From NCBI GenBank assembly GCA_045837725.1, contig JBEWZL010000018.1:1-47469 (forward strand): a stretch of 47,469 nucleotides of DNA, given 5' to 3'. This document shows positions 7,960-46,919 of the stretch, piece after piece; positions within the stretch are counted from its first letter, which is position 1, and every line of letters begins with the position of its first letter. A program made the translations under genes and the position numbers. Source of the stretch: Vermamoeba vermiformis. Taxonomy: Eukaryota. The notes beneath the pieces are model-generated. The model was not told the origin of the DNA and made no database searches. It was given only the letters and a program-made list of their open reading frames with translations.

Positions 7960-8835
7960 TTTTGTTGGATTTGGTAAGTTGTTTTGTTGTTGTTCGTTCT
8001 TTTGTTTTGAACTGAATGAATAGACCGATCCAAATCATTCGCTATTTATACCTGGTTCTTCCACCAATTATCTTAGGTTTTGTAATTTCAATCGGGCAAC
8101 AGGCCTTTGTAATTGTCCTCTTCAAATGCGATTCAATCAGAAAAAGTTAGGATCTGCAACAGCTGTTGCCACCTCTTAGAATAGATGTTTAACGTGCTTA
8201 TACTGACCTTTATTAAACAGATATATTATCACAAGGTCGGATCAGTCATCTCCGAAGTATTTCTGACAGATCTTTTGACTTCGACTGAACGCAACAAAAT
8301 ATTCGCTAATGGAGATCCTATGCGATATAACATATACCATTAATATTGCCAATATCATCGATGCAGTTAGTCGCGTTCAACCAAGTCTCGAGATAGATTT
8401 TTTGGACGGATGCGAAATTCAGAAAAAACTTCGAACGACATCTCTCGTGCTTGAAAGTGCCGAACTTGTGGCTATAATTCACTATAACTCAACGTCAAGG
8501 ATTCCAATGCAAATGGGGATGTTGAAGTTGATCAACTCGTTAATCGGCCTTGCATACTTTGACACTCCAATAGCATTCAATTAACGCAATGTAATTTCAG
8601 TCGAACATGGAGACAATAGTTGATATCAAATAAGTGCTCTTTAAATATGAGTGATATGGAAACGAATGTATGGACTTCGCTTCCTAGCAAGTTCTAGGAT
8701 TAATGCCAGGGCTGAAAAAACGTCGCCCGATTCGTCAAACGCAAAGACAGCACCACTCGTAAGTTTAATAAAAATTCGCACAAGTTATTCTAACTTGCTT
8801 ATTAGGACTTTATTGGTTATACGCTAGCTCGCACT

Positions 8836-9432
8836 TTACAAGATCTTAGTGACATCGAACTTGGAGTAAGTGCTCATCCAAGAGAAGAAGTACTTGGGAG
8901 TGACGTAGAGGTACATGCTGCCGTCCTTGAACTCGATGCACTTGGCGTCGGGAACCTCGCCGGATGTGACCAAGCTGAGGATGATCTTCTTGTTGGGAGT
9001 GGCGTCAACAATAGCCTCCTTGATCATATCGTCCTTGCAGCTCTTTTCCAACCTATAAATATCGTAAGTAATCAATACGAAACGGTTTCAATATTTTTAT
9101 ATGAAATTTCGCGGTAATTTTTTGCCGGTACGCGAACCAATTAAATTGATATCGATTGAAGCATAACTAATTAAATTATATTATAATACTTACAGCATAG
9201 CAGCTTGTGCGAGATAGCCGTCGTCTTTGTTGTAGAACGCTTCACCAATACGTTCGTGGCTGGCAGATCCGCCCTTGATCAGAGCAATGACGAACTCGTC
9301 GAACTTGGGCTCGAATTCGAAGGTGTATTCGACACCAGTAGCAGCCTTGATTCTATCGAGAAGGGCAGGCTTGTTTGCTTCGGCATCACGAAGGTTTTTC
9401 TTGTGAGCGAGAGTGACTTTAGGTTCGGCCAT
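8836..9432 (-). CDS. Small protein paralogue 3; two exons
   Basis: MAEPKVTLAHKKNLRDAE.. joined to ..KSCKDDMIKEAIV..FDVTKIL. Confidence 0.85.
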
Positions 9433-10454
9433 TTTTTTCAAAGTAGATTGATTTTTTGTTGTTTGTTCTTTAGTTTTGAACTGAATGAATATAATCGAAG
9501 CAACCGATCGTTATTTATACGTGATATTTCTGACTATTATCTTAATTTTCAGGACGCCCGTGCAGTCCCTTCCGTCTGTGATTCAACTACGCAGCAAAGA
9601 ATTCAAAACGCAGCATCCACAAATAATTTAATATCGATAATGGATGCTTGATCGCCATATCGTCCTTGCAGATCCTTCGACAATCGGTATGTAACGTGGA
9701 TCTGGTTTCTGAAGCATTTTTTTTGAAATCGACAAGTGATTTTGCAACGTATTATTACTTCTATTATATGCCCTATAGTTAGTTTGAAGCGACAGATCGT
9801 TTCGTTTTGATCGCAATTATTAAGAACTATGTTTTTAAATTCCGTAACTTTATTACCCGTAGAACTCGATTCGTAACTTATTCTGATGCTTTTTTTGGCA
9901 CTTATTAACGTACCTTTTATTAGAACAATGCAATATACGCAACTTTTCATTGACTGCACTTCCGTTACCGAAACTCGTTATCGAATCCAGTAGATGCGTT
10001 GACGTAAAATCGCGTAATCGGCATGATTAATTATATGCAGTATAGGTACGAACAATATGGAATTGAATATCGCGCGTATTAAATTATGCAATGTATATGA
10101 ACAAACGCCATTTGTGGATGTATTTAATTGGGACGTTAACCTAACGTAGTCATAATTCGGATATTTATCTTAATTTTCAGATATTCGACGGGACTGGTCC
10201 AACTCCACAACACAACACAACACATTCTAGTATGCTATCATATGGTATTATTGCTCGTTTTCTTGGTGCTGTGCGTAAACTTCAGCTAGGACCAGATCCG
10301 CTGATCCGTTACACTACGCTGCTGATATTCATAAGAACATATCAAGCGGATGAATAGTATTATTGGCGGTAATATGTGACTTATAAACGTTTATTAGATC
10401 CAAAGTTTACACGCACAATGGATACCGAGAATAACAATCGCTGGTATCAACATT

Positions 10455-11043
10455 TTACAAGATCTGAGTGATGTCGAAGTTGGAGTAAGTGCTCATCCAC
10501 GAGTAGAAGTACTTGGGAGTGACGTAGAGGTACATGCTGCCGTCCTTGAATTGAATGCACTTGGCGTCATCAACTTCGCCGGATGTGACCAAGCTGAGAA
10601 TGATCTTCTTGTTGGGCGTGGCTTCAACAATGGCCTCCTTGATCATATCGTCCTTGCAGTTCTTTTCGAACCTAATAATTAAATATACGTAAGTACTAGT
10701 AATATTGAAATTTATCGGTAATAGTTTTTGTCGAGGCACATCCACACAAAATTTTATGCACGAGCTTGTTATATAACGTGACTGATTATTAATTATGATA
10801 TACTTACAGTTGGGCAACGTGGGAGAGATAGCCGTCGTCCTTGTAAAAGCCTTCACCAACACGCTCGTGGGTAGGAGCTGCGCCCTTGATCAAACCAATG
10901 ACAAAGTCGTCGAACTTGGGCTCGATTTCGAAGGTGTAATCGACGCCAGTAGAAGCCTTAATCTTAGCGAGAAGGGCAGGTTTGTTTGCTTCAGCGTCAC
11001 GAAGGTTCTTCTTGTGAGCGAGGGTGACTTTTGCTTCGGCCAT
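10455..11043 (-). CDS. Small protein paralogue 4; two exons
   Basis: MAEAKVTLAHKKNLRDAE.. joined to FEKNCKDDMIKEAIV..FDITQIL. Confidence 0.85.
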
Positions 11044-11324
11044 TTTTTCGTTGGATTTGGTAAGTTGTTTTGTTGTTGTTCGTTCTTTAGTTTTGAACTG
11101 AATGAATAGACTAGCGCAATAAATCGTTATTTATACCTGGTTCTTCCAGCAATTATCTTAGGATTTGTAATTTCAATCGTTCAAGCTACTAAGCCTTCCG
11201 TCACTTCCAGAAATGTGATTCAATCAGAAAAAAGTACGAAGTGTTGGTCTTTTCGTGTCTAGCCTGTAGATCCTGATGCATCCACAATTAAATATAAGAT
11301 GTTAGATCATTAGCTCCACACATC

Positions 11325-12538: not shown

Positions 12539-14648
12539 TTATTTTCTACGGAACATGTCAAAGACATTTTTAATCGTCGATTTTACCGTTGGTGTCACTA
12601 AACGAATAATAGTCGTTATTAAATAATACTAATAATAGAATTCAAATTTAACTGCCTCAACTTACCTCCGAGCTCATCCAAATACGCCAGTATGTTTACA
12701 TGACCTTTGCTCTTGGCTTTATGATACAGCTCGGGACTAAGCTTCATCTTACCACAGTGCACCATGTAACGCAACAGATCGACGTCATCACTGGTCGATT
12801 TATCGATGGCATCAGGTGACCACCGATCTTTTTATTGAAGAAAGTTAATGCACCGTGAAAAATGTCGAATGACACGTGTCACTTTTTGACACTTTGACAC
12901 TTTTGACTTACATTTGTGTTCGTGTGCGTATTTATAGCAAAGGGTATTGCCATATTCACAACCAATGGAGAATTTGATGCCTGTAGTTGAAAATTTAATC
13001 GCAATTAGTAGGAAGCGAAAATAACAGTTTTTCTGACACCAAATGTACCTTGCTTGAGCAACCAAGCCATTGACGACACATTCCTCGATTGAGTTGCAAT
13101 AACGACATGCTGTTCATCGAATTTAGCGCCGTGTTGTTTCATCCATTCAAGCACTTTGAGTGTTTCTACAGACGCAAGCGTGAGAGGTAGTCTCAACATG
13201 GAATCCTCGATCTCGAACTTCTCGATGTTGTACATGTACTCCAAAAAATCGACACCATAGCGATAGGTCAACCCCATTTCGACGTACTCAGCGTGAGTTT
13301 TTAATCTCGGTCCGAGATTTTTCTCCATGACGTACTTCACGCAATCAAAATTTGCACTAATAGCGGCCTGTAATACATCTATTCGATCTCCGTCTTCATA
13401 CTCTTTAGTATCAGTATCATAATGTTGCTCTTCAATGCACCACTTCAAAAATTCTAGATCTGCGGATTCGGCCGCTAAAGTGCCAAGAGCGTTGGGTCTG
13501 TTCACCTTGTTCACCATTGTTAAATACTCTAATATGTCCTTTTGAGCGTTTTCAGCTGCTCTTGAGAAGATTTCGGGCAATAAAACAGCGTCAGGTACAT
13601 GTTCCACGAGATATTTCAACACATCCAAAGATCCGACTGTTTCGACGGGGTATGGAATTTGCGCGCCATTCTCTATCAAGTATTTCAAGCAGTCTAAAGC
13701 GCCGTGTATTATTGCGTAGTATGCTGCTTCGCCACAAGGTGCACCGTTTTCATGGGCGTACTTCAACATCTCCAAGTCGTTCGCTTGCACTGCATTCTGG
13801 CTCGCGTAAGTCTTCCATTCGAGTCCTCGCTCATTCAGAAATTTCGCCGCTTCAAGGCTCCGAACAATGATGCAGTTCACGGGACAGCCTTCCTCCACGG
13901 CATATTTCAAGCACTCGAAACGATTGCAATTTGAAGCCATGTGTGGTATATTATCGTCCCATGGATATCCGTTCTCGTGCAAGTACTTTAAGACGTGCAC
14001 GTGTCCTGCACTAGCTGCAATACAACACAACGTTACGCCGTGGTTGGTCTTCATGTCAATCTTGTTGCTGATGTTCTCGAGACAGTACTTGAGCATTTCT
14101 AGGTTGCCAATGCGGGCTGCTTCATTAGCCACTTGTAGGTTCAATCGACATCCGTTATTTCGCAGAAATTTCAAGGCCTCAAGTTGATTGTTCACAGCAG
14201 CGGTGATTGCGAGATCTGTCGTGAAAAAGAAGTTCAACGACTTCAAATACTCCAAGCATGATATACTGCCAAGCTTGATGAAGTAAGCAGCGCATTCATT
14301 CTGATCGAGAACGAAGTGTTTGGGAAACGGATGCAGATCCAAGTGCGAGTTGAACAAAGACTTGCATGAAGATCGAAGCATTAAAGCATCGAAATGATTA
14401 GTGTGGCTTATGATAATCTTCATTATCTCATTTGGCACTCCTAACAAGCCCTGGCTATCCTAAAAAAATAAAATTAAATATTGAAAATTTCGCAAAAAAA
14501 TTGCCGTGGTGCTAGTTGCTATTAGGGCGCCAAAAATGAAACAACTAAATTAAATGACAAATTTATTGCCTACTGAAATTAAATTTCGGTTGATCGGGAA
14601 TAAAAATTACATTTTAAAATCCTTACCTGCGTAGCCTTGACCGGCCAT
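12539..14648 (-). CDS. Ankyrin-repeat protein with an F-box-like N-terminus, multi-exon
   Basis: Repeated AA..GNLEMLKY / LKYLHENGYPWD / LKYAHENGAP units; N-terminal VPNEIMKIII..LRSSCKSL. Confidence 0.8.
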
Positions 14649-24669: not shown

Positions 24670-25266
24670 AACTTTCCTGCATTATTAATCTCCTTGTAAT
24701 ATAGCTTTGTAATAAATACCTGTTTCCTTCAAGATATTCGATCGCGATTTATTTCGGATACAGATACAACAACCATGTAGATATTAGATTTGAATAATAC
24801 AGAAAACGATAAACTCCAACTAGGAATTATCAAATTGAGCGTTTCTGGGTCGACCCAATTACACATCCGAGATGCACGAACAACCAGTACTGCTTGCTAA
24901 ATAAGGTAAAATAAGGTACATAATTTTAACCTTTTTGTCTTTTAAATCTTTTTGCCTGCAGATTCAGATCATAATTTTGATTTTTTTTTAAATGAAATCA
25001 AAATTCTATTCGGTTTACTACACGTGTGCAATTTACGCAAATTATGTCGGAAAAAATTATTAACGATTTTTTAGGTAATTTCGTATTTCGCGGTTGTTGC
25101 TGCCCAAGCAGCTGCGGAATTGCGGATTTAGAGAAAAAGTCAAATTCCCTAATTCCGCTGGTACAATATTTAATGATCAAGTGGCTTATATCGCTCAAAT
25201 AATCTGTTAGAGTAACGTAAGCAAACTATTTCTTTTGCTAATCGCCTGTTGACTCGAATCTGGGAG

Positions 25267-28200
25267 ATGGCGAACGGATCTCAATTTCTGCTGCTTACGC
25301 TCAAAAATTTCAAAATCAAAGGACGTAATGGCTGTGGTACTGCTATTGAAGTAATATTTCCAGCCATTTGCTTGGCTTTCCTAATCGCTATGTTCGTCAT
25401 AGCGGTGCCTACCGAACCGAACTACGATCCGATTCCAATTGGCTTTCAACCGGTCAATTTAACATACGGACCTAATGTCGATTCGGTTCGTAGTATTCTG
25501 CTCGCTGTTGTGTATGGACAAGAAGATCTGCTGCATCCAGTGAACACGGAAGAAGAGATGGAAGAACTGATAGTCGATACAAAGAACAATATTACTGCAG
25601 GTAATTGATTATTAGTTATTTCCTATTAATTTACTTTCGGAACAATATCATTCGATTTTGATCAAAAATTGACGTTGTGAATCTAGGAGTTTTCTTTCGG
25701 TTGACGGAGGATGAGCTGGCCAACGATAAGCTCTCCGATAACGTTACCTATAGTATTCGAATGCAAGCCTATAGCGTGGCTAGACCATCAATTCTATTCG
25801 AATACGCGGCAAATACCGACTCTTCCAAAGCGTTGATGTACTACAGCTTTGTTGCAATCCAAAAGAGTGTGGATCAGGCTGTTATGTCTACAAAAATCCA
25901 AGAAAAGACTGGCACAGCAAGCAACTTAAATCTTCAAGGCTTCGCTACGAGATTTCCCAGACAAGTTCCAGAAACTGAATTGGATGTGCGCTGGCAACTT
26001 CGAAACAGCATTCTGAAGCTTATTGGTGGCACGTGGTTAACATTTTGTTTGCTATTCTCCGTGTATCGCCTCGTTGGCACAATCATCGTCGAGAAAAAGA
26101 CCAAAGTCGTAGATGCAATGCGCATGATGGGCATGCGAGTAAGAAACACTTTGAAATCTCCTAAAGATAGCCACTAATTTATGATACTAGAATGAACTTT
26201 ATTGGGTCACTTGGTTCATCGTCTCGCTAGTTCTTCTCATTCCAATTCTAGTTGCGTGCTCTGTCTTGCTCAAGTACCTCAACTTTTTCCCACTGTCATC
26301 GATTGGTTTAATCTTCATTACTTGGCTATTATACGCCGCGTCACTTATTGCATTTGCAATGATCTTTGCTGCTTCTTTGAACTCGGCTAAGGTAAAATAA
26401 GGGTGCCGTATTTGCTGCAAGTACTAATGTTCGTGCGTATAGAGCTCTGGTCTGATTACTCTGATGGTACTCGTAGTGCTTAGTATTGCAGGAGCAGGCA
26501 TTACAGCCGCAGATATGCACCCAGCGCCTAAAATTGTGCTGTCTGTCTTCAGCCCTGTTGCCTTCAACATCGCGGTCAACATTTTCGCCGAAATCGAAAA
26601 CCTTAAAATGCCAGCAGACGATCACCTATCAGGTAACTATCCTTATAGGCATTATTATCACTTTCACTTATTAATATCAAATTAGAGTACTTTGGTGGTC
26701 GACCGTCGCTTCATTCAATGATCGCCATGCTCGTAGTTGACACGGTACTTTATCTTGTCCTCGCGTGGTACATTGACGGCGTCAAGACAGGTGGTTCCAA
26801 AAGCTCGTGTTTTTGCTGCCGACCTTCGTACTGGGGCAAGCATAAAACTAACGGACAACCTGTGATGGACGAGGAAGAACTTGCTGGTCACCAAGATAAC
26901 GCTGGAGATTTCGAGAAAGTTGATCACTTCAAGCAACCTGTTGTGTCCATTCAAAATTTGCGAAAGAAATTTATGTTCGATGATCAGCCCTTTATCGCCG
27001 TTGACGGTTTTTCGTTGGACATGTACGAAGGCCAGATTCTTGCCTTATTAGGTAATTGTTAGATAATCGCACTAAAAGTCCTTATCCTAATTATATTGAT
27101 AGGTCACAACGGTGCTGGTAAAACTACGTTGATTTCAATGTTGACTGGAAGTTTGGATCCGACATCCGGTGAAGCTGAAATGTATGGCAATAGCCTCACG
27201 AAAGATTTAACTGCCCTGAAGAAGATTATTGGCATTTGTCCGCAATATGACGCTATATGGCCCCAATTGACAGTCTTCGAACACTTGCAATTGTTCGGTG
27301 GTTTCAAAGGTACGAGAAAATTACGTCTTAATTTCTGACACTTTTTTAACTATTGCCATTTTAGGAGTAAAATTTAGCAAAGTTAAAGCTGAAGCGGAAC
27401 AACTCATTCGAGATTTCGAACTTGAAGAAAAACGAGATTACCCTGCTGGAAAATTATCCGGTGGTCAAAAACGAAAGCTGTCAATTGCAATGGCGCTGAT
27501 TGGAGGATCAAAAGTCGTTTTTTTGGACGAACCTTCTGCGGGCATGGATCCTGAAGCTCGACGAGTAGTTTGGGACAATTTAGTCAAACACAAAGAAGGA
27601 CGCGTCATTATTATCACGAGTAAGTCTTAATAGTCACTATTGGAATTAATACGGTCCTAATATATCCTTCATTAGCTCATTTTATGGATGAAGCAGATTA
27701 CCTAGGCGATCGAATTGCCATTATGCGACATGGAAAATTATTGTGCGCTGGATCTTCGTTGTTCTTGAAGAATAGATTTGGTCTTGGTTACACCCTTAAT
27801 TGCGTAAGCAACTGAAATATGAACGATGCTTAATTTTTACATCTTTTAAACACGAAGCGAAATTACTTATTGAAATAATAGTGGTTAATAATTACATGGA
27901 AACTAATGAAATTTCAATAGGTCAAGACACCTACATGCAATATTGATGAGCTAACAGAGTTCTTGAAAAAATACGAGGACGTTCAAATTCTTTCGAATGT
28001 CGGGGCCGAAGCTATTTACAGAATTCCACGGGATGGCTTCCGAAATCTCCCGCGCATGTTAAGTGACATGGAGATTAGCAAAGAATCGCTCGGAGTAATT
28101 TCCTACGGAGTTGGGCAATCTACGCTCGAAGAAGTTTTCTTGGAACTAAATATGGATTCAGATCTGCAAGGAATTTCCGAAGATACGCTCAAAGAAACCG

Positions 28201-30929
28201 TTTTTATTCCAGCTTCTGATTCCTCGAACAAACGACAGCTAAATGCGCTCTTGAACAAACGAAAACAAGTTGCGAAACGAGACGTTAAGTTCTTGTTCAT
28301 TCAGTTCGCAGTGCCTATCATCTTGTGCATTGCTGCCTTTGTCGTGCAACGCTTGATGTTTACCAACACTGTTGGTGGCGAAATTGCCGTGAACGGACAA
28401 GTTTACGGTATGGATCAAGATCTAAAAAAAATTCTTAATTAACTAATTGAATCATTATTAGACGGATTCATCTCACCTTGGGCTAATTCGAATTGTACAA
28501 CCAATTATTTCTCTGCTTTGCCGAACTACACGCCAGAATTGTTCCCGAAAATTTCATTCGATGACGTCACTTCTGTGCTTAGTAACCCCGACACGTACGC
28601 ATCAGGTGCTATTATCAATTATTTCTGTATGTCTGCGGGGCCGACCCAAGTGCTTCAATACGCTCTTTATTACAACGCATCGTTGCCTCACTCTATTGGC
28701 GTTCATCAAAACCTCATCTCAAACGCTGTTCTCAACACAGCACTTAACGGCCTTGGATCCGTAACAATTAACACTATCAACCATCCCGTTGGTAAGTATA
28801 TCATATTACATAACATATTCAATGTATTGATGGTCTATTTAGGCATTCCTATTGATCTACTCACGAACCTCATTAGCGTGTTGATCTTCCTCTTAATTCT
28901 GATTGGTTCGTGCGTACTTTCGGCGTCAATCACCGCGTTTATCTTCCAAGAACGTGAGCTTGGCATTAAGCAATTGCAATTGGCCAGCGGAACTAATGCA
29001 AAGATTTACTGGCTGTCCAACTTCATCTGGGACTTCACGCTGCACATGATCGTTTTCATCGTCATAATCATCGTTACTATTGCTACAGATTATAAGACAT
29101 TTGGAGGAGAAAGAATAGGCGCCGAGGTCATATTGATCATCTTATACAGTTTGTCATCGGTCACTGCTGCTTACTTCTTCACCTTCGTCTTTTCCGGATC
29201 CGGATCTGGCCAGGGTGCCATCTTAGGTCTCTTCCTCGGCCTTAGTTTTGGCTTCTTAACATTCTTCAATGCTGTTTCCGTTGCCGTACCAGGTTCTCAA
29301 GATGCTATGAATGCATTGGGCTATGTTTTTAGAATTATCAGGTACGAGACAAACATTTTTTCACGATACGTTTGACCGACGATATTTTTCAGTCCTCATT
29401 TCCTGCTCATTGCTTCCTTCGGCCAATTGACAAACAGTATCGGCGCCACTACGAAAAATATCGTTACCGAAAACACGGACATTTTTGGAATGTAAGTTTT
29501 TGTTCGGAAATGTCACGCTTATCAGTTTCACTAAATGTTTAATCTAGTAACTATTGGGGCACATCGTTCATCATATTCGGTGGCCAATTCTTGCTTTATG
29601 GATTTTTAACATTATTACTGGAAAATATGCATCAATTCCGCTTGAAACAAAAACGATCTGCAAATCACCACGGCGAACATTCAGTCGATGAAGAAGACGA
29701 TGATGTCATGCGAGAACGAGATCTCGTACAAAATGCAAACCCGAACGATGTTGAGAACAATCTTGTATGGGTCAGTGGGCTGCGAAAAGAATTCAACGGC
29801 AAATCCAAGATCCGCAAAGTAGCGGTCAACAATTTTTCTCTACGCATCCCTCGTGGAGAAAGTTTTGGGTTATTGGGTGCCAACGGAGCAGGTAAATAAT
29901 AATACAATCATATATTTTAATATCCGGATTGACAAACATTTCCTTTTTAGGCAAAACTACTACTTTAAAAATGTTGTCAGGACAATTGTTGCCAACATTG
30001 GGTGAAGTCAGAATCAACGGAAACACGTATGAAAATCTCGATCAGATTTTACAGTCAATTGGATGCTGTCCACAATATGACTCTGTCATTCCTAAGTTGA
30101 GCGGAAGAGCACATCTAGAACTTTTCGCCGAACTTAGAGGTACGCCTATTCAATTCAAATATGACGTACTTATATATGGTATAGGACTTCCCAAGCACAA
30201 GATTCCTGCTATTGTCGATGCGTTGATTGAAACCATCCATTTGACCAAATACGCAGATCGACCTTGCGGAAAATACAGCGGCGGTAACAGACGAAAACTG
30301 TCTTTAGCTCTTGCATTAATAGGTAGGATATATCGCTTAATATTGATTACATAACCTAATATGCATATTAGGCAACCCTCCTGTTCTTTACTTGGATGAA
30401 CCTTCAACCGGAATGGATCCGTTGGCGCGAAGATTTATGTGGAATTTGATTATGGCAGTGCGATCCAATAAGGCTATTATATTGACTACGCATAGTATGG
30501 AAGAATGCGAGGCCTTGTGTACTCGTTTGGGCATTATGATTGGAGTAAGTTAAAAAAACTGAAATTTCGTTGAACTGACCAATCATATCGCAGGGAAAAT
30601 TACGTTGCGTAGGCAGTCCTCAGCACTTGAAGACTAAATTCGGAGATGGATATCGCTTGGAACTGAAGACGGATCTGCAACACGTCTATCAGATCCCTTC
30701 ATTTATTCAAAAGATTTCTCCGGAGGCCAAACTTGTCGATCAACATACAACGCTATTTAATTATGAAATTCCGATGCAGAACTTAACATTAGGACAATTA
30801 TTCGAACAAGTCGAGAACGCGAAGGAGAATTTACATATTGGCGATTACGCGGTCAGTCAAACTACACTAGAACAGATATTTATTACTATGGCGCAAGAAT
30901 ACATTAGGCCACGCGTAGTAGTGGACTAA
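25267..30929 (+). CDS. ABCA-subfamily full ABC transporter, multi-exon
   Basis: Two NBDs ([30 protein letters not shown] and [30 protein letters not shown]), two TM domains, STLEEVF and TTLEQIF motifs. Confidence 0.95.
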
Positions 30930-34204: not shown

Positions 34205-37200
34205 ATGTCACCAACAAAAAGTTTTGCAACGGTTTTTTGTCATTTACCTTCGCCGATGGCAGAACGGAGACCACACGTGGGCGTATCTTCTTCCCTGGAG
34301 CATGGGCTAGTTGATGGCTGCGGCCGAAATGTGCCTACTGCGAACCAGATTAGATGCGCTGTTCCGTCGAAGTTCCGCTTAAAGCAGGAGGTCGGGAGAT
34401 TAATTCCCGTTTTATTCGAGCCAAATCCTACTAGTGGAAGCGAGCAAATGCAAGATCTGCATGTGAGGTAAAAGTTTTGAATTATTAAATTTTATTTTAA
34501 TTTTAGAAATTTATTGTTTCGATCGTTACTGTATTATTGGTAACGAATTATCAATTATAGATTTTAATAAGTAAATATATTGCCGGATAAAATTGGTATA
34601 ATTTATAACGGCTAGTTTTAGTCAGATGGCGGAGCTGATCCAGTCCAACATGACATCGCCACTTCCTCTTAGTGAAATCGAGCCTATAATTAAGGGGACG
34701 CTAAGAACAAATTATCGCAACAGATACTCGCAGCACACAAACAAATGCAGCCTGATTGTTAAAAGTAAGTCGATGCGCGTAACTGCAACCGTTCGTAACA
34801 TACTAATAGAATACTGATAGCGCAAAATTGTATTCAGCCAAGCCACGTTGAAATGCATGCTGCTGACTTCGATGAGGAGATTTGCGACAATTCACAAATA
34901 CAAGACAGCGTTACACTTTGCTGTGCGCGAGCAGCTGGCAACTATAACTACGCCTCATTCTCTGCGTTGCAACAACACTTAGCCGAGAGCAACTGGTCTA
35001 TTCAATTGAGCGAGTAAGTAATAAGGTGAAGGACAACGCGACTGTACCGATGTTAATTAATTCTGTAGGGTGGGCTGCGAGCAACACCTCGGGGTTACAG
35101 TCGAGTTGCTGTACAACTTCTTACCCAACGATCTTTACGCCAAATTCAAGGCTTCGCTCATGGACGACGTGATTCTTGTGTCGGAGTTGAGGAAAGAGAA
35201 TCGTGGAGCCATGTCAAGGACAAAAAGACTGTATGCAGTTTACGGTCAAGCCCAAACTGGAATAATGTACAGGTACAACACCGTTGCAATCTAGTATTTG
35301 TATTAATTGTACTGTTAGTAATTTTGCTTGGACTGCTTGCGATAGTGTTCCCGAGTGTCTTGGCATTTTATTTCATTGCCTTCACTCCCTTGGATACAAC
35401 GTTACCGAGAGAACTTGTGTAATGCTATCATTGTATCCCCCGTCCACGGTCGAGGATATTGCCGAGGCATTAAAATCTGACAGACTGAACTACATAGCGA
35501 TGGGCTTGCATAGAGATGGTAGGCTCCGTCATTTTTTGTTTTCGATACTTATTCTAGTACAGATGACGTTTATTTGGGACCGCTTTCCGGTATTCAAGTT
35601 TTGACACTATCTGGCTTTCTCGATCCCTATGATTTGATGGCAACCCCCTGTCCTGTAGGCTGGCAATTTGCAATGCAAAATGGAGCAGGTACGTGGTAGC
35701 AGCTGGCTGCTGTCGCCGTGTTTGTTGACAACACATCCTAGGCGACAAGACCCACATCAATTTGCGGGACAACATGCTGCTGGTTCAGCCGAAGGGCATG
35801 CAGGCGTTGTTGAAGCACCGCGTAATCGGAGTACACTCTCCTTTTGTTCGATGGGTTGCAACAGTCCGCGACGTTGACATTAATTTGTTTAAGCGCAGTT
35901 GCATCGGTAAAGGTAAGCGCAATGCTGAACTTAAATACCCACAGCACATCTAACATGTTACAGAGATTAACGCCGATTCGGGATGGTCCTTGCGACAATG
36001 GACTGAAGGTGAGCGGAAACAAAAATGGCTTCGCACTCTCCGTCCTCATACTCACACGAGTTTAAGAAACGAGCGCAAGTTATCTATTCTATCAATGGTG
36101 TACCCAGATGATACGCAAGCCCTGCGAAAGGCTTTACATTACAATCCCAACGTTGTATTCTGTGCTTCTTGTGATTGCTTTTGCCACGAGCAACAGCATA
36201 ACTGCCTGGCTTCTAATACTATTGTATTTGGAAAACGGCAACTAGAAGTTGGGAAGACATACTCAAAACAGCAGTTGATTGATGTAGAATTTCACGGCGC
36301 TCCCTCTCTAGACGCGGCTTTTGTGGGAGACGTAATTTTAGGTAGTTAATCTGTTTATTTTTGACTTGTACTAAGCTTCCCTCCAAAGGCTGCTCGTCTA
36401 TTGTTTTGACGAACAAGTTCGCTGGAAACGATTACTCAAAATGGCGGGATGGGACCATAGTTGTCGCAGGAGCACACAAGCACACTCTATCGGTGCTGAA
36501 ATCGGCCTTTTCCGCTAGAAACAACAAAGTCCTCGCGAGTTTGGTCCGTAAGTCACCAATTGAAGTGGTGGTGGAAGAAGAAAACGGCAGCTTTGTTTAC
36601 ACTGGTATGCGCGATGTTTGGTTTAGACTACTTACTAACCAGTTGTAGGCACGTGGTTTGTCCGACAAATGAGAGTTGATACAGACAATATCACCGACTC
36701 CGAAATTCTTGTATTGTTTGATTTGGAATCGGAGAAGCAATTTTACAATTCGCGAACTAAATTACTTGCCTCGGACCAAAATTTGAGTATGTACAATTTG
36801 TCCTGTAACAAGTCGCTAACAAAACAAGTAGACTACTGGTCGCTGGCCTATTGCAATGCAATTGCGAGTTTTACTTACAACGAAGAGGAAGAAGAATTGA
36901 CACAACATGGTCGCGAAAATCTGAAGCGAATAACTTGTGGGGCCAATGCTACAGAGGATGAATTATTGTCGTATTTATTCGATTGTACTAGTTCACTGTG
37001 TACGTTTTTTAATATTGACGCTGTCAGAGCCCCTATTAACGTGGATCAAGTGATCCAGATTTTGAACCAACTTTTTCGGTTGGGAAATTAAGACAATTTT
37101 CGAAACGATTTCTTTCAAGTTTGGTTTTAACTGTTAATAAATTAGTCGGACTAGCAGTGAAACACTAGTACCACAGCGCAAGAACTGTCCAAAAGGGAAA

Positions 37201-40200
37201 TTTATTGATGGCATCAATTCGAAGCAAGGGTAATTATTCTGCACTCCTGCGTTTGAAGACTAATTTCTAAACGTCGGCGCTAATTACTTGCACAATAGAT
37301 CTGTCCGCTTTTGGGTTGTACGAAACGCATTTACGGACTTTGGAGGCGGAATCGAGCTTAAATAGATCCCTGTCGGCATACGATTTATACCTATCTTGCG
37401 TGGCTTATCATGGGGTTGGATTTCTATCGTTCGACCAATTCTCCGATCTGCTTCGCCAAAATTTTCAGTAAGTTAAATTTAATCAGGGTCAACAATTAAT
37501 TTCAATTGATAGTGAATACGAAAGGTGCCGAGACACGTATAGGCTGCACTTTTGCGGTGTAAGTTAAGTTTTTACAAACGGTGTAGATCTAAACAAAAAA
37601 CAGGAGGAAATTCGCTGTGGTGTCCAAAATCCCAGTAAGACAACGTGCTACTTGAATGTGTTATTGATTTTATTTTGGAAATTAAAATCGATACACGTCT
37701 ATTTGTCTTACACCTCCTTCTTGCCCGCCTCTGTATTGGATGTGTTCACCCAGCTCGACAGCCAACCTTGGAATGGAGCTTCCGCAGGCAGCTTGCAGAG
37801 ACAACTTGCTGATATTGGCCGGTGGCAAGCCGGACATAGAGACGCACACGAGGTGCTAACTGAACTGCGGTCCCTAGTTCCTGCACTGTCCAACGGTTTT
37901 GGATTTTCTGTTGTGTCGCACATCACACATCGTGGAAAAATAGTCTCAGAACCACGCCACAACGAAGCCCAAGAGATTATTTTGCCCGTACATCAAAGCA
38001 TACAGCAGGCGCTGGTGTGCTTTTTCGAAGAAGAAGTGGAGTTCAGAGTTAAGCAAAGTAACAAAGTAAGAGCGACTTCCAGTTAAAATTTGGTACTAAC
38101 TCTCTTCTAACAATTATTGCAGAGGTGCAAAATGCAACGCATTATGGAATCGTATCCCGATATTTTATTTGTCGTGCTACAGCGTTTCGATGTGACAAAT
38201 GCAAAAGATAACAGCCCCATGGCAATAGATCGAATGTTGGATGTGTCTGGAACCTGCTACATTCTTTTTGCTGTCATACTTCACAGCGGTACTGCGGGAT
38301 CTGGTCATTATAAAATACTTGTCAACGAAGAACTGAAAATGAATTGGGTCCTTTATAATGACGAGCAAGCAGCTACGGTGAGTTATTGTATATTTTGAAC
38401 GTCATTATTAATAACTAACGACAAATTAGGTCAACAGCGACGAAGCGTTAGATCAGATTTCGCAAGGCTACGAAAGTGCTTACTTGGTTTTTTATGTTAA
38501 GCAGGCCAGGGCTGGCAGTGTACTGACTGCCAGTAATAAAAGAAGTTGCCGATCACATCGCAAAAGAAAACAGCCAGAGGATGGCTGGGATGAAGACTGG
38601 CAACGTGTCGGTAGTCCAAGTACGAAGATAAACTTGAAAAAAACTTGCAGTCTGTAATTAACAATTCTATAGAGAGAAGGAAAGTTGACGAATCCTCGCA
38701 GAGTAGTTTTGAACTACAAGAGACGGCGGAAAGTGACTTGCAAGAAAGCGACTTGGAAGACGCAGAAGAATCTGTCCAACTTGACAATGTTGTAGCTTCT
38801 GATTTCGATAACCCGTCTGTTGAAGAAATGGATAAAGCAACATTGCTCAATTCGGATGTCAAAATTGACAAGCCGAAGTTTAGGCAGGTCTTTAGATTTC
38901 GCGTCGTCGATGCAAGTATCTTAATTCTATAAAACCGAAGCTAATTCGAGCGCAGGACGCATATGAGTGGTTAATCCATTGGACCTTCAAAAAGGCATTG
39001 TATTTGAATTGGGTCAAAGAGCGGCAGTTTTCTATTACACTCCGAAAAATGCTACGCAAATTTCAGCTATCCAACGCAGACGAACCGTTCGGTTGGACTG
39101 ATCAGTCAAAACAAATTGAACCTCCGAAAACTATTGACTATGAATTTGACGAATCGGCTTGCGGTCCTGTTTCACCTCCTAACGATACATCGCCGCGATC
39201 TTTGTTTGAGCTATTCTTTCCTCGTATGTTTGATTTTGCCTTTTCAACTCAGTAGCTAACGAGGTCTCGTTTAGCTGAACTCCAACAACAAGTTGTCGAT
39301 GAAATCAACAGATTTGCTGTTCTAGATTTTGACACCAAGCAGAAAGAGCGGATAGATATTCGAAACAAGAGAATTGCTCGCTTCAAATCTTGGGCAAAAG
39401 AAAAAGAAGTTGAATACCCGGATTTAGTGCGCAACGACAGCTGGAAAACAAATTTAAAAGAGCTTGACGAATCAATGTCGTTTACCTATAATTTTACCAA
39501 AAACGATCGAGAAGTGCACGATTCATTGCGGCAAAATTGGGAAGATATCACACTGGCAGAATTTCAGACGTTTATTGGAATAGTCATTGCAATTCGTTGC
39601 ATAGCAAGCAAGAGATTTGAGGATTATTTTAATGAAAAAGATCCAAAATACGGCAACGAATGGATTGCGATGCATATCTCTCGGGCTCGCTTTCGTCAAA
39701 TACTAAATAACTTTCATTACGATGTTGATTTGGTGCTTGCTAAAGTTGCGGAACTCTGTCGAGACCACTGGAATCCACATCAACGGGTTGCTTTTGATGA
39801 GACAATAATGCCGTTTTTGGGAATGTTCTACGGTTTGGTATGAATTAACTAATAATTTACATTTTACTAAACGAAACAGAAACACATTCCAACAAAGCCA
39901 CACCCAAACGGAGTACTGTTACACATGCTCGCCGACTCTAAGTATTTCATTTGGGACTTCGACTTCTTTCTTGGCTTAATTCTTCCACCAAAGTGAGATC
40001 TGCACACTTTAGCAATAACGCATTGTTAACGCGTTGATAGGTATCAAATTATTGAAGTTGTTAAAAAACTGCAGCAAAAGCAAAGGCACCACGTTATTAC
40101 TACCGACTCAAAATGGGGCTCGGAGGAACTGGCTAGAGTGTTAGGTAACTTCTATCAACTCGCGCTGCTTTTTACCTCCTTTGTTTAGATGAACGACAAT

Positions 40201-40462
40201 GTCTATGTTTACTTTCGTGCAAGAAAAATTCTCCATCCTACATCTTCGACAACCTACACACACTCGCAAAAGAAGTTGGACAGTCCGGTGCAATTTATTG
40301 TAAAACAGATCAGTCAACAATAGCAGCCTGCTCTTTTCGTGACTCCAATGCCACGATGAACCTTATTTCAAACTATGTGTCGGGTAAACTGTTCTATTCC
40401 AATAAGTTGTTATTTAACCTGTCTTAGACAAATTTCATTGGTACAAGCTGGGCCCAAAAGTC
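34205..40462 (+). CDS. 5' part of a multidomain piggyBac gene: His-Me-finger-like, AlkB-like, SRA-like, USP (C19), transposase N-part
   Basis: Manual GT-AG splicing gives one frame. AlkB: KRLYAVYG, MGLHRDDD, MQALLKHRV, RWVATVR. SRA-like: FHGAP, GCSSIVL, PIEVV, FVYTGTWFV. USP: GVQN..TCYLN, RDAHE, LQRF, HSG..GHY, YNDE, AYLVFY. Transposase: SLFELFF, ISRARF, AFDE, PTKPHPNG, TTDSKWGS. Confidence 0.75.
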
Positions 40463-40553
40463 GGGACGAACTTTTAACAAGGGGAAAAATATCCCACGTA
40501 TAAAGTGTACTGTTCGAACTTTTACTGTAAACTTTACAGTATAAATAAAAAAT

Positions 40554-43345
40554 TTATTTTAAAGGCCGTAAAGGTGGAATACAAATATAAATAGTGTTTG
40601 TGTTTGCTCCCACCGAGTTCTCAAACAAGGCAAGAGAGTGTGTTACAATCCACTGATGTGCAATAAGCAGTGTTTTGTATTGCATAATATCAAACACAAC
40701 GTCCATTATTGCAAAGGAGTATTGCACTAAAGTGTAGTGTTGATGAGCTTGTTCTGGAACGGAAGCTGAAATGAGAATTGCACGCTTTTTCGAGGCAGCA
40801 GGCAACTTGACATTAGTGAAAGCCTTAGTAACTGTAGGAATGGTGTAAGTGTAAAGTTTACAGTTATACAATAAAGTTTATAGTACGTACGGTAATAAAA
40901 GTAGACATAAAGAGGAGATGAACTAGACCCTCTAGTGTTACCAGAACCACCATACAAAAATGACTTGAGTAAAAAACCCTGGCTTGTAAGCCAGAGTAGG
41001 AATTTGCCAAGCTTTGTCTCCCCTACAAGCCAGGTGAGACAAATAAAAAGTAGAGTGAAGCAACTTACACGCATCATTTTTGTCGTAGATTGTGGTGACA
41101 GTGTCTCCAAACTCATGCGAAAACTGAACAGCAGAGGAAGGCTTGTGTTCGATTTGATCTTCTTCATCACTGAGATCCCCAACCTCTCCAGCATCATAGC
41201 TGTCAGCTGATTCTTGATCACGCCTGAAAAATTGTTAATAATTGCAAAACAAGGTTGACTAAACTTACAAGACTTTTTTGAGAGATTGAACCTTATCCTT
41301 AGACTTTGCTGAGGCAGGCTTGTCTTCAGAAACCTCCATCCGCCTTTTGAGAATAAGTATAAAGTGTAAAGTTTACAGTTTACAGTGACTTACGTGCCCA
41401 AGGCTTTCTTTTTAGGCGAAGTTTTTGGAGCTTGCTCTTCATCAACATCCATGGCACTAACAAAAATTAGATCAGCATTTAAGTTCGGTCAAAATGAACA
41501 CTCACGACTTCTTTTTAGGCTTAGACTGAAGCTTATCCTTAGATTTTGCTGAGGCATGTTTGGAAACCGTCTTCTCCCTGAGAAGAATTAAATTCATTAA
41601 TTGCAAACTGGTGGCATTAATGAACTTACGAGGTGGACTTTTTTGGCTTGGTTTTTGGTGGAGGTTGTTCATCATCTGAAAGCTCCATCACCCTGCGTAC
41701 AATTAGTGTAAAGTGTAAAGTGTAAAGTTTACAGTAAAAACTTACGACTTCTCTTCATCACTTGCAATTCTTTGCTCTGCTACAAGTTAGTGTCTGGTAT
41801 GCGCTTTATCTCATGAAATACATACCAACTTCGAGAACTCTCTTTTGTTCTGCTTTGTCAACACTAAGTTTGCCCCCATGAATGTCAGTAAAACGCACTG
41901 CATCCAGCACAGTATCAAGCGTGATCTGCTGGGGCTTTTCAGTTGAAGGTTGCAGGATAATGGCACCTGAAGAAGCAGTGCGTACTATTTTCAACCAACT
42001 AACAGTTAAACGTGATGATGCCAACTTCTTCTTTGGTGGAACAGTCACCACCCCGTACCAGATCTGTTTTTTTGGACCCAAAATTGCCACAACAGATGAT
42101 TTATGTACTGTAGCCAAATCATTAGCAGCTGCATATGGCTCTGCAGAGGCTCCTTGTAATCCTAGGCGATAAGGCGGTAAGTGTAAAGTTAGTATTATAA
42201 ATGCAAACTGTAAAGTGTACAGTGTAAAGTTTACAGTTTTTACCTTCGCGCACGTTGGGTTTTTGTTTCCGCCCCGAACTGTGTTCACTCTGTTCACTTG
42301 ATTCCTGCTCGCTGGCATCATCAACAACTTGCTCTGTGAGGACCGTATCTCCATCGTCCTTTGCAGCATCATTGCTGCGATCTACAGGCGCGTGAAAGCT
42401 TACCGGGCAATTGCTTGGAACGGGAGGTTCCAGGTGCAATAGGACCCCCCTCTGCAGTAGTATCGATGGTTTTCCCATCGTTTTTTGAACCATCTCTGCG
42501 GCGATCTACAAGAGATTTGAGATTTAAAATTGAATGTAAGTTTGACAATCACTTACCAGGTGAGTCTTCGGAACGGGAGGTTCCAGGCGCGGTAGTGCAC
42601 TCCTCTGCAGTATTATTCATGGTGTTCCCATCATTATTGGGCGCGTTGGTGCTGCGATCTTCGAAAACGTTAGCAAATCTGAGTTCGGTGGATGATCGCG
42701 TGAAAGCTTACCGGGCAACTGGTTGGAGCGGGAGCTTACAGGCACGTTAGGACGCCCCTCTGTGGTATTATCGATGGTGTCCCCATCATTATTGGGTGTG
42801 TTGGTGCTGCGATCTTCGAAAACGTTAGCAAATCTGGGTTCGGTGGATGATCGCGTGAAAGCTTACCCGGTGAGTGCTCGGAATGGGAGGTGCCAGGTGC
42901 GTTAGTACGCCCCTCTGTGGTATTATTGATGGTATTCCCATCGTTATTGGATGTGTTGGTGCTGCGATCTTCGAAAACGTTAGCAAATCTGGGTTCGGTG
43001 GATGATCGCGTGAAAGCTTACCCGGTGAGTGCTCGGGATGGGAGGTTCCAGGCGCGAGAGGACGCTCATCACCCTTATTATTAGTAGTACTAATAGTGTT
43101 GGTGTTGCTGTTGTTGTCGCCATCTGGTTTTAGAAAAAAAAACACATCAGATTTAAAATTTTTAAAAAAGTCAATAAATAATTATAAAAAAATGATATCG
43201 AGTGTATAAATAATATATAAATAATATATATATTACTATTACTTACCTTTCTTTGCTTTTTTTGCTTGAATTGATTTTTCTTCCCCCGAATCTGAATCTC
43301 TTGAGCGCTTTTTCGAGTGTTTGTCGCTTGTGTGTGATCTATCAT
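40554..43345 (-). CDS. Second gene of the nested element: multi-exon charged, low-complexity protein of unknown function
   Basis: Series of minus-strand GTAAG..AG introns joining short Lys/Ser/Asp-rich exons, with globular-looking parts at ~41820-42160 and 40554-41030; start uncertain. Confidence 0.6.
42340..43060. repeat. Tandem exon-plus-intron repeats with a 155-bp period
   Basis: GCTGCGATCTTCGAAAACG at 42651, 42806 and 42961; two more diverged units near 42375 and 42500. Confidence 0.9.
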
Positions 43346-43451
43346 CTTCTGTACGCCCTTTCGAGCGCGTATTGTAAGTAGACATTATCGCCAAGTGCGG
43401 TGTTTGTTCGAGTGTTACGGTAAAACTTACAGTTTAACTTTACGGTAAAAC

Positions 43452-46222
43452 ATGGCAACCATGTCGCAAATTGTACAGGTGGAATGTGACTGTAAAGATT
43501 ACACCTGTTACCAAAAAATTAATTATGGAAAGGCTGGTAATCACAAGGTTTATTATACTTGCCAGCTTTTCAATTACAAAAAAAACGCCATCTGTGGGAT
43601 CGTAAAAAGATCCAAAAAAGAAATGAAGCAACACCAAATGGCTCAAATGCATCATGAAGGTATTGTTACAATAGTAATTTAATTAATCGAAACAATTATT
43701 TTTAATAATGTCTTTACCTAGATGTGCTGAAGCTGAGATCCAGCACCACCCTGAAAAGAGACAAAAAAATGTTGGTACCTACTGAAAAACAGCCAAAACC
43801 ACAGCCAGTGAAAATAGATACATCTTCTTCTACTCTGCTATCACCAGCTAAGGAGGAAAAACAAAAAGGTAACGGTCAGAAAGGGCGCGAAAACTTAATG
43901 CAAAGTTTACCCTTATGTTCAACTGTAAACTGTAAACTATACACTTACCAGTAAACGCAGAACCGGATCGGTTGGAGCCAGTAATTATCAATCTTGCTCA
44001 AATGTCCCTAAACAAAGAACAAGTTCCAGTTAGCAAAACGGCAGCAGATGATTTGGCTTCCTCAATCGAATCAATTCTGCCAGTGGAGTACCTTCAACTG
44101 TGGAATGCAAAGCAACCTGTGAATATGCTTTCATATGTCCCAAGACACTGTAACAAGCATCAAAAGGTAGTACTTTGATTCTAGGATTGTTGCTTTTTCT
44201 CACCAAAGGTTACTAGAATGAAAAATGTTGCAAAGTGTCATTGAATGGTTGCAATCTCAGGCACCGCTGCTATGATGTGGCCTCACCATTTATTCTGCAA
44301 TATCATCGCTATTACTGCCATTCCCATGATGTGAATTTCTCCATAATGCAATTAGATCTGCAGGACTATCAGGTGACTCCCCAAATAGTGGTATTTGACA
44401 GAACAGTGGTCACTACTCGATTACTTGACTACATATTCAATACAGTTCCTGATCATTCTTTCAACTTCACTGCACTATCTAGGGCAATTTTATCTGGGTG
44501 GGTTGCAAACTTAACGCACAAGCTTTGAATGGTAAGTGTACACTTTACAGTTTACACTTTTCACAGATCTAACCTCTACAGGCACTGTTTACACATGTCT
44601 TCACCGAAGATGACATTCCCAAAGTACTTCAATCAGTGGAGGATAGTTTTGTCATATCTCCTTCAACTTTAGAAGCACTGTACCTGTTCAAATTTCAGGC
44701 CCAACAAAAATTTTTTCATCAATACACATCTGAGTTGGTTCAGTCTACTGGCATTGTTTTGCGCATTGACCATACTTATAAAATAGCCTCTGCATTGTCT
44801 GCACTCAGTAGTGATGGCAAGAGAGTAAGAATTTCATTAATACCATAAAATGTAATGTTTACACTTTACACTTAGGTGCAGGTCAAAGCCTCCTTATTGT
44901 CAATATTAAATGAACATGGTCAAGTGTTAAGAACAACAGTAGTACCATCAGACGAGCGCAGCTATATGTTCTCTGAATTGAAGGCAATATTTGATTTGTT
45001 ACCTGCTCCTGTAACAACTCACATCTTCACTGATGATAGCCGTAAAGGTATTCACTTGCTTTAAATATGACTGCTCCCTCCCTAACAGCTTTTTAGACAA
45101 ATCTGTAATTGAAAAAGCATTCCGCACAGTGTTTCCATCCGCCAAGAAGATGCCAAAAACATGCCAAGATGTTTGGCATGTAATTCACAGAATTGACTCG
45201 GTTTTAGCCCACAACCACCCAGGTAACCTAACTTTCAACACTTCTTACCAATTTAATTCGTATTGACAGATTACTATGCTTGCAAACGGGATTTGAGTGC
45301 TATATTTGCTCACCTAGCCAACATGGAAGAACCAACAGCTGATTTCCTTGACAAAGAACTCAAATCATGGATGGAGAGCTTCAAAGCAGCAAGCAGGGAT
45401 AATGACAAAGATCTTCAGTTTTTTATTGAAAATTTGGCAGACAAGCTCGCTGGGTATGTTCACTTAAAACTGTAAACTTTACACTTTACACCTAACGACA
45501 CTTTCCAGGGGAGTTCCAAAGCTCACAGACTATCCATCAATAATTACTGACAAAGTTGAGGGTGCAGTAACCAACTTTTTGAATGAAAAAGCTGGCTACT
45601 CGGGAGCTGTTCTGAATTCTGCTTCATTAAAAGAGTACAAGAAAGGCACCAATGCTAATGAAGCATGGCATAAATATCTCAAAAGGTCATCGCCACTGTA
45701 CAGTGGTAGTTGCTCTTATGAGTTGCTTAATGCAATAATCACTCATTTACAATTTCTGTACAATTACAGGTTTGTTACGAACTGTAAACTTACCACTTTC
45801 CACTAACTTTCATTCCTTGTAGCAAAGCCAACAAGACATCAGAAAACCCCACTGTCAACAAATTGCATGACCTGGTGCATCTATCGCTGAAGCTTACTGC
45901 ACCATACCTTCTTAATCCTGGTACCACATTGTCTGAGCTGCTTACATTCAGCTCCATGGAAGATTTAGAATTTTTGAACTATACCACTCGTAAAGCAAAT
46001 TACCCCAAAGTTACTGAGGAGGATGTTCAAAAGTGCATTGCTGGTTTGCAGAGAGTCAAAGCAGAAAAACAGGGAATGTCTTTCAATCTGCTTTACTTCT
46101 TGGCACACGATATTTTTGAAGAAAAATACTCCAAAGGATATGTTAGAAAGATTGTTTATGAAGTAGCCAAGCGTACAGAATCAAACAATCCACGCAAAAT
46201 ACAAGGGCGTGCGAAAAAGTAA
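43452..46222 (+). CDS. DDE transposase of the DxxH class with an N-terminal GRF-like zinc finger; one apparent premature stop
   Basis: CDC..NHKVYYTC..C; LRIDHTYK; LNEHGQVL; IFTD; QDVWHVIHRI; KGTNANEAWH; in-frame TGA at 44526-44528 just before a GTAAGT donor. Confidence 0.8.
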
Positions 46223-46280
46223 AGTGTAAAGTGTGCAGTTTAAACGTGGGATATTTTTCCACACGTTAAAAGTTCGTCCC

Positions 46281-46919
46281 CAAAAGTCGTTGCACCAAGC
46301 CCGGGAGTAAAGGTACGGAACCATCATTTTACGAGCAGCAACTAAATTAAGACAGCATACTCCGGGGAAACCATTGTGTAACCAGGAATACACTTATGCC
46401 AAAGGGTTCGTGGACGAAGCAGCTCGTCAATTGCACACGTACGACTGGCCACATAAGACAAAAAAATGGACAGTTGCAATGTTCCACACGCTGCTTACAA
46501 TTTGTGCTTGGAACGCATTTGTCTACAGAAAATCGTTGCCGGTTAAAGACGAGAATAAGAAGTTGAAAGATTTTCGAAACTTCCTCTCCACGGTAGCCAA
46601 CCAGTTTGCAAAAGTCCAACTTCGTGACAGTAAGCACCCATCAAGGCTAATGCGCTTTCGAGACCAAGACCAGAGCATTGTTATCAAGAAGTACAATCCA
46701 TCAGTTGAAGTATCGCAGTTACACATTGCCGTCCCGCACAAGTCAATCCAACGATCAGGAGGACAGCTACGTTGGTGCCAATTTTGTCCAAAACGTAAAC
46801 GCAACAGATGTTCGAAGTCGTGCCTAGCATGCTCACTTGCTTTTGGTAAACCTGTTCCGGCTTGCCAGGGTTGCATGACAAAACACCAAAATCGTCTCAA
46901 ATGCTCTTCTTTGTTTTAA
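46281..46919 (+). CDS. 3' part of the piggyBac transposase: third catalytic Asp and C-terminal Cys-rich domain
   Basis: KPLCNQEYTYAKGFVDEA..KKW..NAFVY..F; WCQFC..CLAC..CQGCMTKH. Confidence 0.88.

Follow-up and report, generated by a model that had tools for sequence, protein, structure and literature searches.

Introduction

DNA transposons of kinds other than piggyBac carry Ulp1 and OTU cysteine peptidases. piggyBac accepts fusions at its N-terminus and serves as a 3′ exon trap, and PGBD fusions such as SCAN-PGBD1 and CSB-PGBD3 are known; the word 'ubiquitin' occurs 0 times in the survey from which these points are taken (Bouallegue et al. 2017, PMC5381638). TET/JBP dioxygenase genes are carried by fungal DNA transposons, for which an anti-silencing role has been proposed (Kojima 2025, PMC12730594). 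A fusion of AlkB with a divergent SAD/SRA domain has been described in 'several fungi' (Iyer, Zhang, Aravind 2016, PMC4738411). In that paper, SAD/SRA fusions are reported for proteins of the AlkBH3 clade, the divergent SRA is suggested to read N6-methyladenine (m6A) rather than 5-methylcytosine (5mC), and AlkB-SRA is proposed as a modified-base demethylase.

A 47,469-nucleotide (nt) stretch of Vermamoeba vermiformis DNA (assembly GCA_045837725.1, contig JBEWZL010000018.1, positions 1 to 47,469), referred to here as the window, was analysed. Its forward strand carries a gene in which a USP deubiquitinase is fused to a piggyBac transposase (gene 2) and, directly upstream, a putative AlkB-SRA gene (gene 1). 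A preliminary description had joined the whole into one protein, a transposase fused to an "epigenetic toolkit" of AlkB dioxygenase, SRA-like and USP domains. Exon-sized open frames of the forward strand do occupy the positions given there, and the order and placement of the domains were borne out, with LHRD, KHRV, RWVATVR, the Cys cluster and the Cys-rich tail all found in the spliced translations. Two genes are a simpler reading than one four-domain protein. The full case, in which a cellular-type AlkB-SRA gene, a USP-piggyBac gene and a MULE-like insert in the latter would be three separate items side by side, is the one we favour with reasonable but not high confidence, and the four-domain toolkit as a single protein is unlikely.

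Gene 2 resembles the transposons with Ulp1 or OTU in that a peptidase for ubiquitin-like modifiers is encoded by or fused to the transposase; it differs in the USP/UCH fold of the peptidase and in the transposon superfamily. If active, the USP-piggyBac protein would add USP to Ulp1 and OTU as a third class among the ubiquitin-family peptidases recruited by DNA transposons, and would be the first such case found for piggyBac. With the piggyBac-like elements and PGBD fusions it shares a DDE_Tnp_1_7 core, a Cys-rich tail and an added N-terminal domain. Unlike in the fusions of the survey (PMC5381638), the domain added is a USP, the gene has 13 introns, and the TTAA duplication and inverted repeats were not found in the window.

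Domain organization of gene 2

The window is eukaryotic DNA of about 40% GC, with very short introns in which CTAAC-type branch sites are often present. Gene models were built in this analysis from splice coordinates, and the spliced proteins were analysed by script. Pfam was run on single stop-to-stop pieces at E≤1. The features of gene 2 are as follows.

37208..46919, forward strand: gene 2, USP-piggyBac fusion, 14 exons, 1,084 codons, no internal stop
37208-37229, 37299-37467, 37513-37558, 37604-38065, 38123-38377, 38430-38619 and 38673-38915, forward strand: exons 1-7
38951-39223, 39275-39837, 39880-39992, 40041-40144, 40189-40383, 40428-40440 and 46313-46919, forward strand: exons 8-14
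37604..38619, forward strand: USP/UCH deubiquitinase domain, with a Cys box ending in SKTTCYLN, the His box GSGHY, and ND
38673..39223, forward strand: basic patch (KRRK) and acidic linker, then the piggyBac N-terminal region, with homologous exons in the related contig L122
39275..46919, forward strand: piggyBac (DDE_Tnp_1_7, by Pfam) core and C-terminal Cys-rich tail

All 13 introns are GT-AG; 12 of them measure 35-69 nt and one measures 5,872 nt. The stop codon TAA at 37565 was considered as a nonsense mutation and rejected, as it lies inside a canonical 45-nt intron (37559-37603). The single open frame encodes, in order, an N-terminal region of 80 residues, the USP domain, the basic patch with the acidic linker, the piggyBac core and the Cys-rich tail.

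The deubiquitinase was identified at 38111-38398 by the Pfam family UCH (PF00443; E 4.5e-14, 53.1 bits against a cut-off of 23.9). When the USP exon was compared with the PDB, 33/33 distinct sequences matched were USP or Ubl hydrolases. The exon encoding the domain's N-terminal part gave no Pfam match by itself. By eye, the spliced translation shows the catalytic residues in TTCYLN, GSGHY and YND. The USP with Cys and His boxes of the preliminary description is thus confirmed by the above-threshold UCH match and by the motifs seen, and to judge from these residues the domain may well be catalytically complete.

The transposase was matched by DDE_Tnp_1_7 in two pieces, at 39256-39843 (E 1.5e-11, 44.7 bits) and at 46311-46919 (E 2.8e-6, 27.3 bits), both above the cut-off of 22.4. 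The piggyBac Asp motifs FDET, TTDSKW and GFVDE were read by eye, and the Asp of FDET is invariant in the alignment of close relatives. The fourth Asp, that of the GGVDxxD motif, is Ala in gene 2 and Val in L122. The acidic linker, transposase and Cys-rich tail described earlier are all present, with the transposase profile above its cut-off, and the fusion of a USP to a piggyBac transposase is supported as real by the sequence.

The transposase of gene 2 would cut and paste as piggyBac does, and the tethered USP would remove ubiquitin in cis. Its target could be the transposase itself, which would thereby escape degradation, or the chromatin on which the transposase acts. That a transposase shields itself, or alters ubiquitin marks at its place of action, is a testable idea. 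Because piggyBac is widely used as a tool of genome engineering and accepts N-terminal fusions, an enzyme fusion that occurs in nature is of practical interest.

Conservation of the USP-piggyBac arrangement

With the piggyBac exon as query, a full HMMER search returned 37 proteins, 36 of which carry DDE_Tnp_1_7 and 0 UCH. The four close relatives among them (74, 54, 43 and 38% identity) are exon-sized assembly fragments, too short to show UCH. An alignment of these four was used as the query for a metagenome scan, which yielded four contigs, L122 to L125.

L122 (3,989 nt) is 47% identical to gene 2 in the piggyBac exon and encodes UCH (1.1e-12, 48.6 bits), the linker and DDE_Tnp_1_7, in the same order as gene 2. 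It begins inside the USP domain, and its collinearity with the window extends from 38120 to 46616. The end of the USP, the linker and the transposase are linked in one frame by canonical introns, as read by eye. L123 and L124 are deleted, frameshifted copies in which the exon for the USP end and linker (E 2e-12) directly precedes the piggyBac exon. L125 is a distant piggyBac and showed no USP match. Since the UCH domain or the end of the USP precedes piggyBac in L122, L123 and L124, the USP-piggyBac order is, as far as these sequences tell, a conserved architecture found in three lineages of a small family. An unrelated open frame of 130 residues, with no Pfam match, occupies positions 1-393 of L123, upstream of the USP remnant.

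A scan of metagenome contigs with the USP exon gave no match, and neither did a scan of viral contigs with the alignment of the four relatives. Among longer proteins, a word-based search with the USP exon gave no match. In titles and abstracts combining piggyBac with deubiquitinase, USP or Ulp1/OTU, no published description of a USP-piggyBac fusion was found; the fusion is apparently new.

A transposon nested in the last intron of gene 2

The longest intron of gene 2 contains an element with the following features.

40463..46280, strand not assigned: nested MULE-like DNA transposon, 5,818 nt, delimited by inverted repeats and a target duplication
40455..40462, strand not assigned: left 8-base-pair (bp) target-site duplication CAAAAGTC, abutting the left inverted repeat
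46281..46288, strand not assigned: right 8-bp target-site duplication CAAAAGTC, a perfect copy, abutting the right inverted repeat

The inverted repeats are 60 nt long (40463-40522 and 46221-46280) and 82% complementary. When the element and one duplicate are removed, a 46-nt GT-AG intron is left between the 13-nt micro-exon and the last exon. In a collinear alignment, L122 crosses the insertion point without the insert and so passes directly over the 5.87-kb 'intron'. The inverted repeats, the perfect CAAAAGTC duplication and the insert-free L122 indicate that the 'intron' 40441-46312 (5.87 kb) is a transposon nested in a small intron of gene 2. A "GT-AG intron" accepted by eye can thus conceal a whole transposon. 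A 5-bp GGTAC duplication was also considered for this element and dropped in favour of the 8-bp CAAAAGTC, which abuts the inverted repeats.

The nested element has multi-exon genes of its own on both strands. Its putative transposase motifs look MULE-like. The label MULE-like is based on the geometry of the terminal repeats and target duplication and on these motifs; no Pfam family was matched by 7 exon pieces of the element at E≤1, a weak test, as the domain is split by an intron. The insert and Mutator-like elements are alike in having inverted repeats of at least 60 nt and an 8-bp target duplication. It is unlike them in that its exons match no Pfam family and that a 16-nt motif, GTGTAAAGTTTACAGT, is scattered through its introns and subtermini. 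With at most 3 mismatches, this motif has 31 matches in the window, all of them within the nested element (40498-46239), against 0.61 expected. The matches lie in both subtermini and, in the introns read, within genes of the element, where most are in antisense orientation. They may serve as binding repeats for the transposase or represent an intron-borne element.

The forward-strand gene of the element has a Cys/His-rich N-terminus from about 43453. At 42389-43125, an open frame of the element's minus strand contains a 153-155-nt unit repeated five times in tandem (64-83% identity).

Gene 1, a candidate AlkB-SRA gene

Upstream of gene 2 and on the same strand, gene 1 was modelled with the following features.

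34628..37091, forward strand: gene 1, with AlkB-like domain, Cys cluster and SRA-like domain; spliced model, open to the TAA at 37089-37091
34765-34820, 35014-35068, 35273-35318, 35519-35562, 35689-35741, 35913-35963, 36342-36388 and 36605-36648, forward strand: introns of gene 1 (n=8), 44-56 nt each
35069..35912, forward strand: AlkB-like 2-oxoglutarate (2OG)/Fe(II) oxygenase domain spread over 4 exons and containing HRD, the distal H in KHRV, and RWVATVR
36158..36205, forward strand: Cys/His cluster FCASCDCFCHEQQHNC, with a Pfam C1_4 match below the cut-off (E 1.3e-4, 22.6 bits; cut-off 28.9)
36221..36735, forward strand: divergent SRA-like (SAD/YDG) domain in 3 exons, from weak profile tests

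The exons from 35069 to 37091 form one frame. The start is uncertain, either ATG 34628 or ATG 34205 with a 148-nt intron.

To assess the oxygenase, 44 diverse bacterial AlkB sequences were picked from Pfam-family matches in 352 genomes. Against the hidden Markov model (HMM) built from them, the AlkB-like segment scored with an E-value of 0.0059 (one target), a score reached by 0/3000 shuffles in a first set and by 3/3000 in a second. The hhalign alignment of the segment spans 130 columns (P 0.0049) and keeps HxD and the distal His in register. The iron triad falls in register with the AlkB family, HRD on H.D and KH on the distal H, and RWVATVR falls on the R.S.TFR columns of an alignment of AlkB subgroup B (overall P 0.093). 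Gene 1 received no score from a profile of 30 2OG-FeII_Oxy_3 proteins that served as control. The family 2OG-FeII_Oxy_2 (PF13532) was absent from the Pfam matches on 6 gene-1 pieces (E≤1), and in 4 exon-level PDB searches of gene 1 neither AlkB nor SRA chains appeared, chance matches only being returned. Of the AlkB domain claimed earlier, the motifs are thus in place and a profile is weakly significant; matches in Pfam and at exon level in the PDB were not found.

The claimed CxxC knuckle is present as the Cys/His cluster FCASCDCFCHEQQHNC of the spliced translation. It lies between the AlkB-like and SRA-like parts and resembles the second half of the C1_4 zinc finger of TFIIH p44. Compared with p44/SSL1 in the PDB it gave E-values of 0.3-0.85.

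The SRA-like segment matched an HMM of 2 bacterial SRA-HNH proteins with an E-value of 0.0091, and 3/3000 shuffles reached this score. In hhalign with a 122-sequence SRA alignment (P 0.12), 104 columns are collinear, from the VG...H motif to the YxG motif. SAD_SRA (PF02182) was not among the Pfam matches on the 6 gene-1 pieces at E≤1. For the SRA claim, a weak collinear profile alignment speaks in favour, and neither Pfam nor the PDB gave a match at exon level. Matches for two exons in the protein atlas (best 0.85 and 0.79) belonged to unrelated families and were discarded as noise. The C-terminal part of gene 1, about 115 residues (36740-37088), has no Pfam family match, and a word-based search of the last exon against proteins of near length found no relative.

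The apparent domain order of gene 1 matches that of the fungal AlkB-SAD/SRA proteins (PMC4738411), an AlkB-type 2OG/Fe(II) dioxygenase followed by a divergent SRA. In gene 1 the SRA is so divergent that Pfam misses it, and the protein has two parts besides AlkB and SRA, namely the C1_4-like Cys cluster and the some 115 C-terminal residues without a Pfam match. As AlkB-SRA fusions are already published (PMC4738411), gene 1 probably fits a known cellular architecture, and by its domain order it may belong to the fungal AlkB-SAD/SRA clade. It would then enlarge a little-studied family for which erasure of m6A has been proposed. The preliminary description had proposed a read-and-erase module for methylcytosine. 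The AlkB and SRA identities remain plausible; the methylcytosine logic is weakened, because the same paper argues that the SRA may read m6A.

One protein, one element or two neighbours

The two genes are separated by a short interval.

37092..37207, forward strand: spacer between gene 1 and gene 2, 116 nt, with AATAAA at 37136-37141

At this joint the stop codon of gene 1 (TAA, 37089-37091) is followed by AATAAA and then by the ATG of gene 2 at 37208, from which a 69-nt intron (37230-37298) places the next exon in frame. All in-frame GT-AG bridges from gene 1 to gene 2 span 299-719 nt and use non-consensus donors; the best runs from the donor GTACGTTT at 37000 to 37298 (299 nt) with a CTAAT branch. 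The other introns of both gene models measure 35-69 nt, the uncertain 148-nt intron and the transposon-bearing one aside. A bridge of at least 299 nt is therefore disfavoured. The region 37080-37300, already described as the weakest joint, proved to hold a stop codon, then AATAAA, then an ATG, and can be bridged only by an intron of 299-719 nt. One continuous frame through GT-AG introns was thus found for gene 2 (1,084 codons, free of stops), not for the step from gene 1 into gene 2, and the AlkB-SRA part tethered to the transposase is not supported. From the sequence of the joint, two genes rather than a spliced fusion are probably the simpler reading.

Two neighbouring genes have to be weighed against several other arrangements. 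In one, a single transcript encodes a single AlkB-SRA-USP-piggyBac protein, and an intron leaving the last exon of gene 1 skips its stop. Such in-frame bridges exist, as from GTACGTTT at 37000 to 37298 with its CTAAT branch, the spacer is only 116 nt, and the first exon of gene 2 as modelled has only 7 codons. The bridge would, however, exceed every other short intron of the models and would drop at least 30 open codons, the stop and AATAAA; the ATG at 37208 with its 69-nt intron is a simpler model, and AlkB-SRA is known as a stand-alone architecture (PMC4738411). The single protein is accordingly improbable. It is also doubtful, if a little less so, that two separate genes belong to one mobile element with AlkB-SRA as its cargo. 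The genes are tightly packed on the same strand, no above-chance element end was found between them, and dioxygenase cargo is documented in 11 lineages of DNA transposons (PMC12730594). The pair of genes resembles those TET/JBP transposons in that a gene for a putative nucleic-acid 2OG dioxygenase adjoins a transposase gene; it differs in that the oxygenase aligns with AlkB and that piggyBac is outside the 11 lineages, the word 'piggybac' having 0 occurrences in that paper. Element ends were not found anywhere in the window, so inclusion of gene 1 is equally unsupported, and only about 275 nt separate ATG 34205 from a minus-strand open reading frame ending at 33930. The codon usage of gene 1 is host-like: its cosine to the other genes of the window is 0.933, against 0.851 for piggyBac, which is weak evidence. 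The deleted copy L123 holds an unrelated open frame upstream of its USP remnant. The view that one piggyBac element holds both AlkB-SRA and USP-transposase, either as two genes or as alternative splice forms, has a modest chance of being correct. In that event a single piggyBac element would carry a reader and eraser of modified bases and a deubiquitinase to escape chromatin silencing.

A further possibility, which overlaps the explanation that we prefer, is that the USP-piggyBac gene is a domesticated, PGBD-like host gene and not a transposon. Inverted repeats and a TTAA duplication were not found in the window, the gene is intron-rich, the fourth Asp of GGVDxxD is missing in gene 2 and in L122, and the tolerance of N-terminal fusions and exon trapping by piggyBac (PMC5381638) would favour such an origin. 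Domestication nevertheless seems unlikely, if not remote, given that deleted, frameshifted copies exist (L123 and L124), that the relatives at 74, 54, 43 and 38% identity are separate fragments, that gene 2 retains three Asp motifs and the Cys-rich tail that binds DNA ends, and that, with only 550 nt between the stop codon of gene 2 and the end of the window, the right element end may be outside it. We return to the reading that we favour, in which AlkB-SRA is probably a neighbouring gene of known kind.

Several observations weigh against this reading. In the search for element ends, 1,032 TTAA pairs enclosing the transposase gene were examined for flanking inverted repeats, and the inverted 16-mers were distributed like the non-inverted control. 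No piggyBac ends were found in the window; gene 2 is a candidate mobile gene, and gene 1 may lie inside or outside its element. None of the four metagenome contigs covers the region upstream of the USP, L122 starting inside it, and gene 1 matches none of them; AlkB-SRA may or may not be a constant partner. With a spacer of 116 nt there is little space for a promoter of gene 2's own, and GTACGT, the donor at 37000, is similar to the one at 35689; the two genes could therefore be co-transcribed or joined by alternative splicing. Within gene 2, the junctions 38620/38672 and 38916/38950 (a 35-nt intron) are the least certain. As to gene 1, neither E. coli AlkB (by phmmer) nor an HMM of 80 E. coli-type AlkB sequences matched it, and the AlkB and 2OG-FeII_Oxy_3 profiles cross-match each other's members at E≤10 (28 and 35 rows), so the oxygenase could come from another double-stranded beta-helix family. 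The SRA-like segment scored worse with the 122-sequence profile (E 0.036) than with the 2-sequence profile. Both the AlkB-like and the SRA-like assignments are plausible and collinear, and statistically weak.

The best candidate pair of piggyBac ends, TTAA 37088 (overlapping the stop of gene 1) and TTAA 47000, matched at 11/16 positions; 205/2000 shuffles reached the local alignment score, and the pair was attributed to chance. The comparison of the flanks by blastn gave nothing significant.

Other features of the window

Two further regions served as host references for codon usage: on the minus strand, 13005-14459, which by eye encodes an ankyrin-repeat-like protein, and on the forward strand, 25216-30354, which by eye is a multi-exon, ABC transporter-like gene. 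At 7531-11184, a unit of about 1.5-1.6 kb is repeated three times in tandem (70-97% identity in pieces) and resembles a small tandem gene family.

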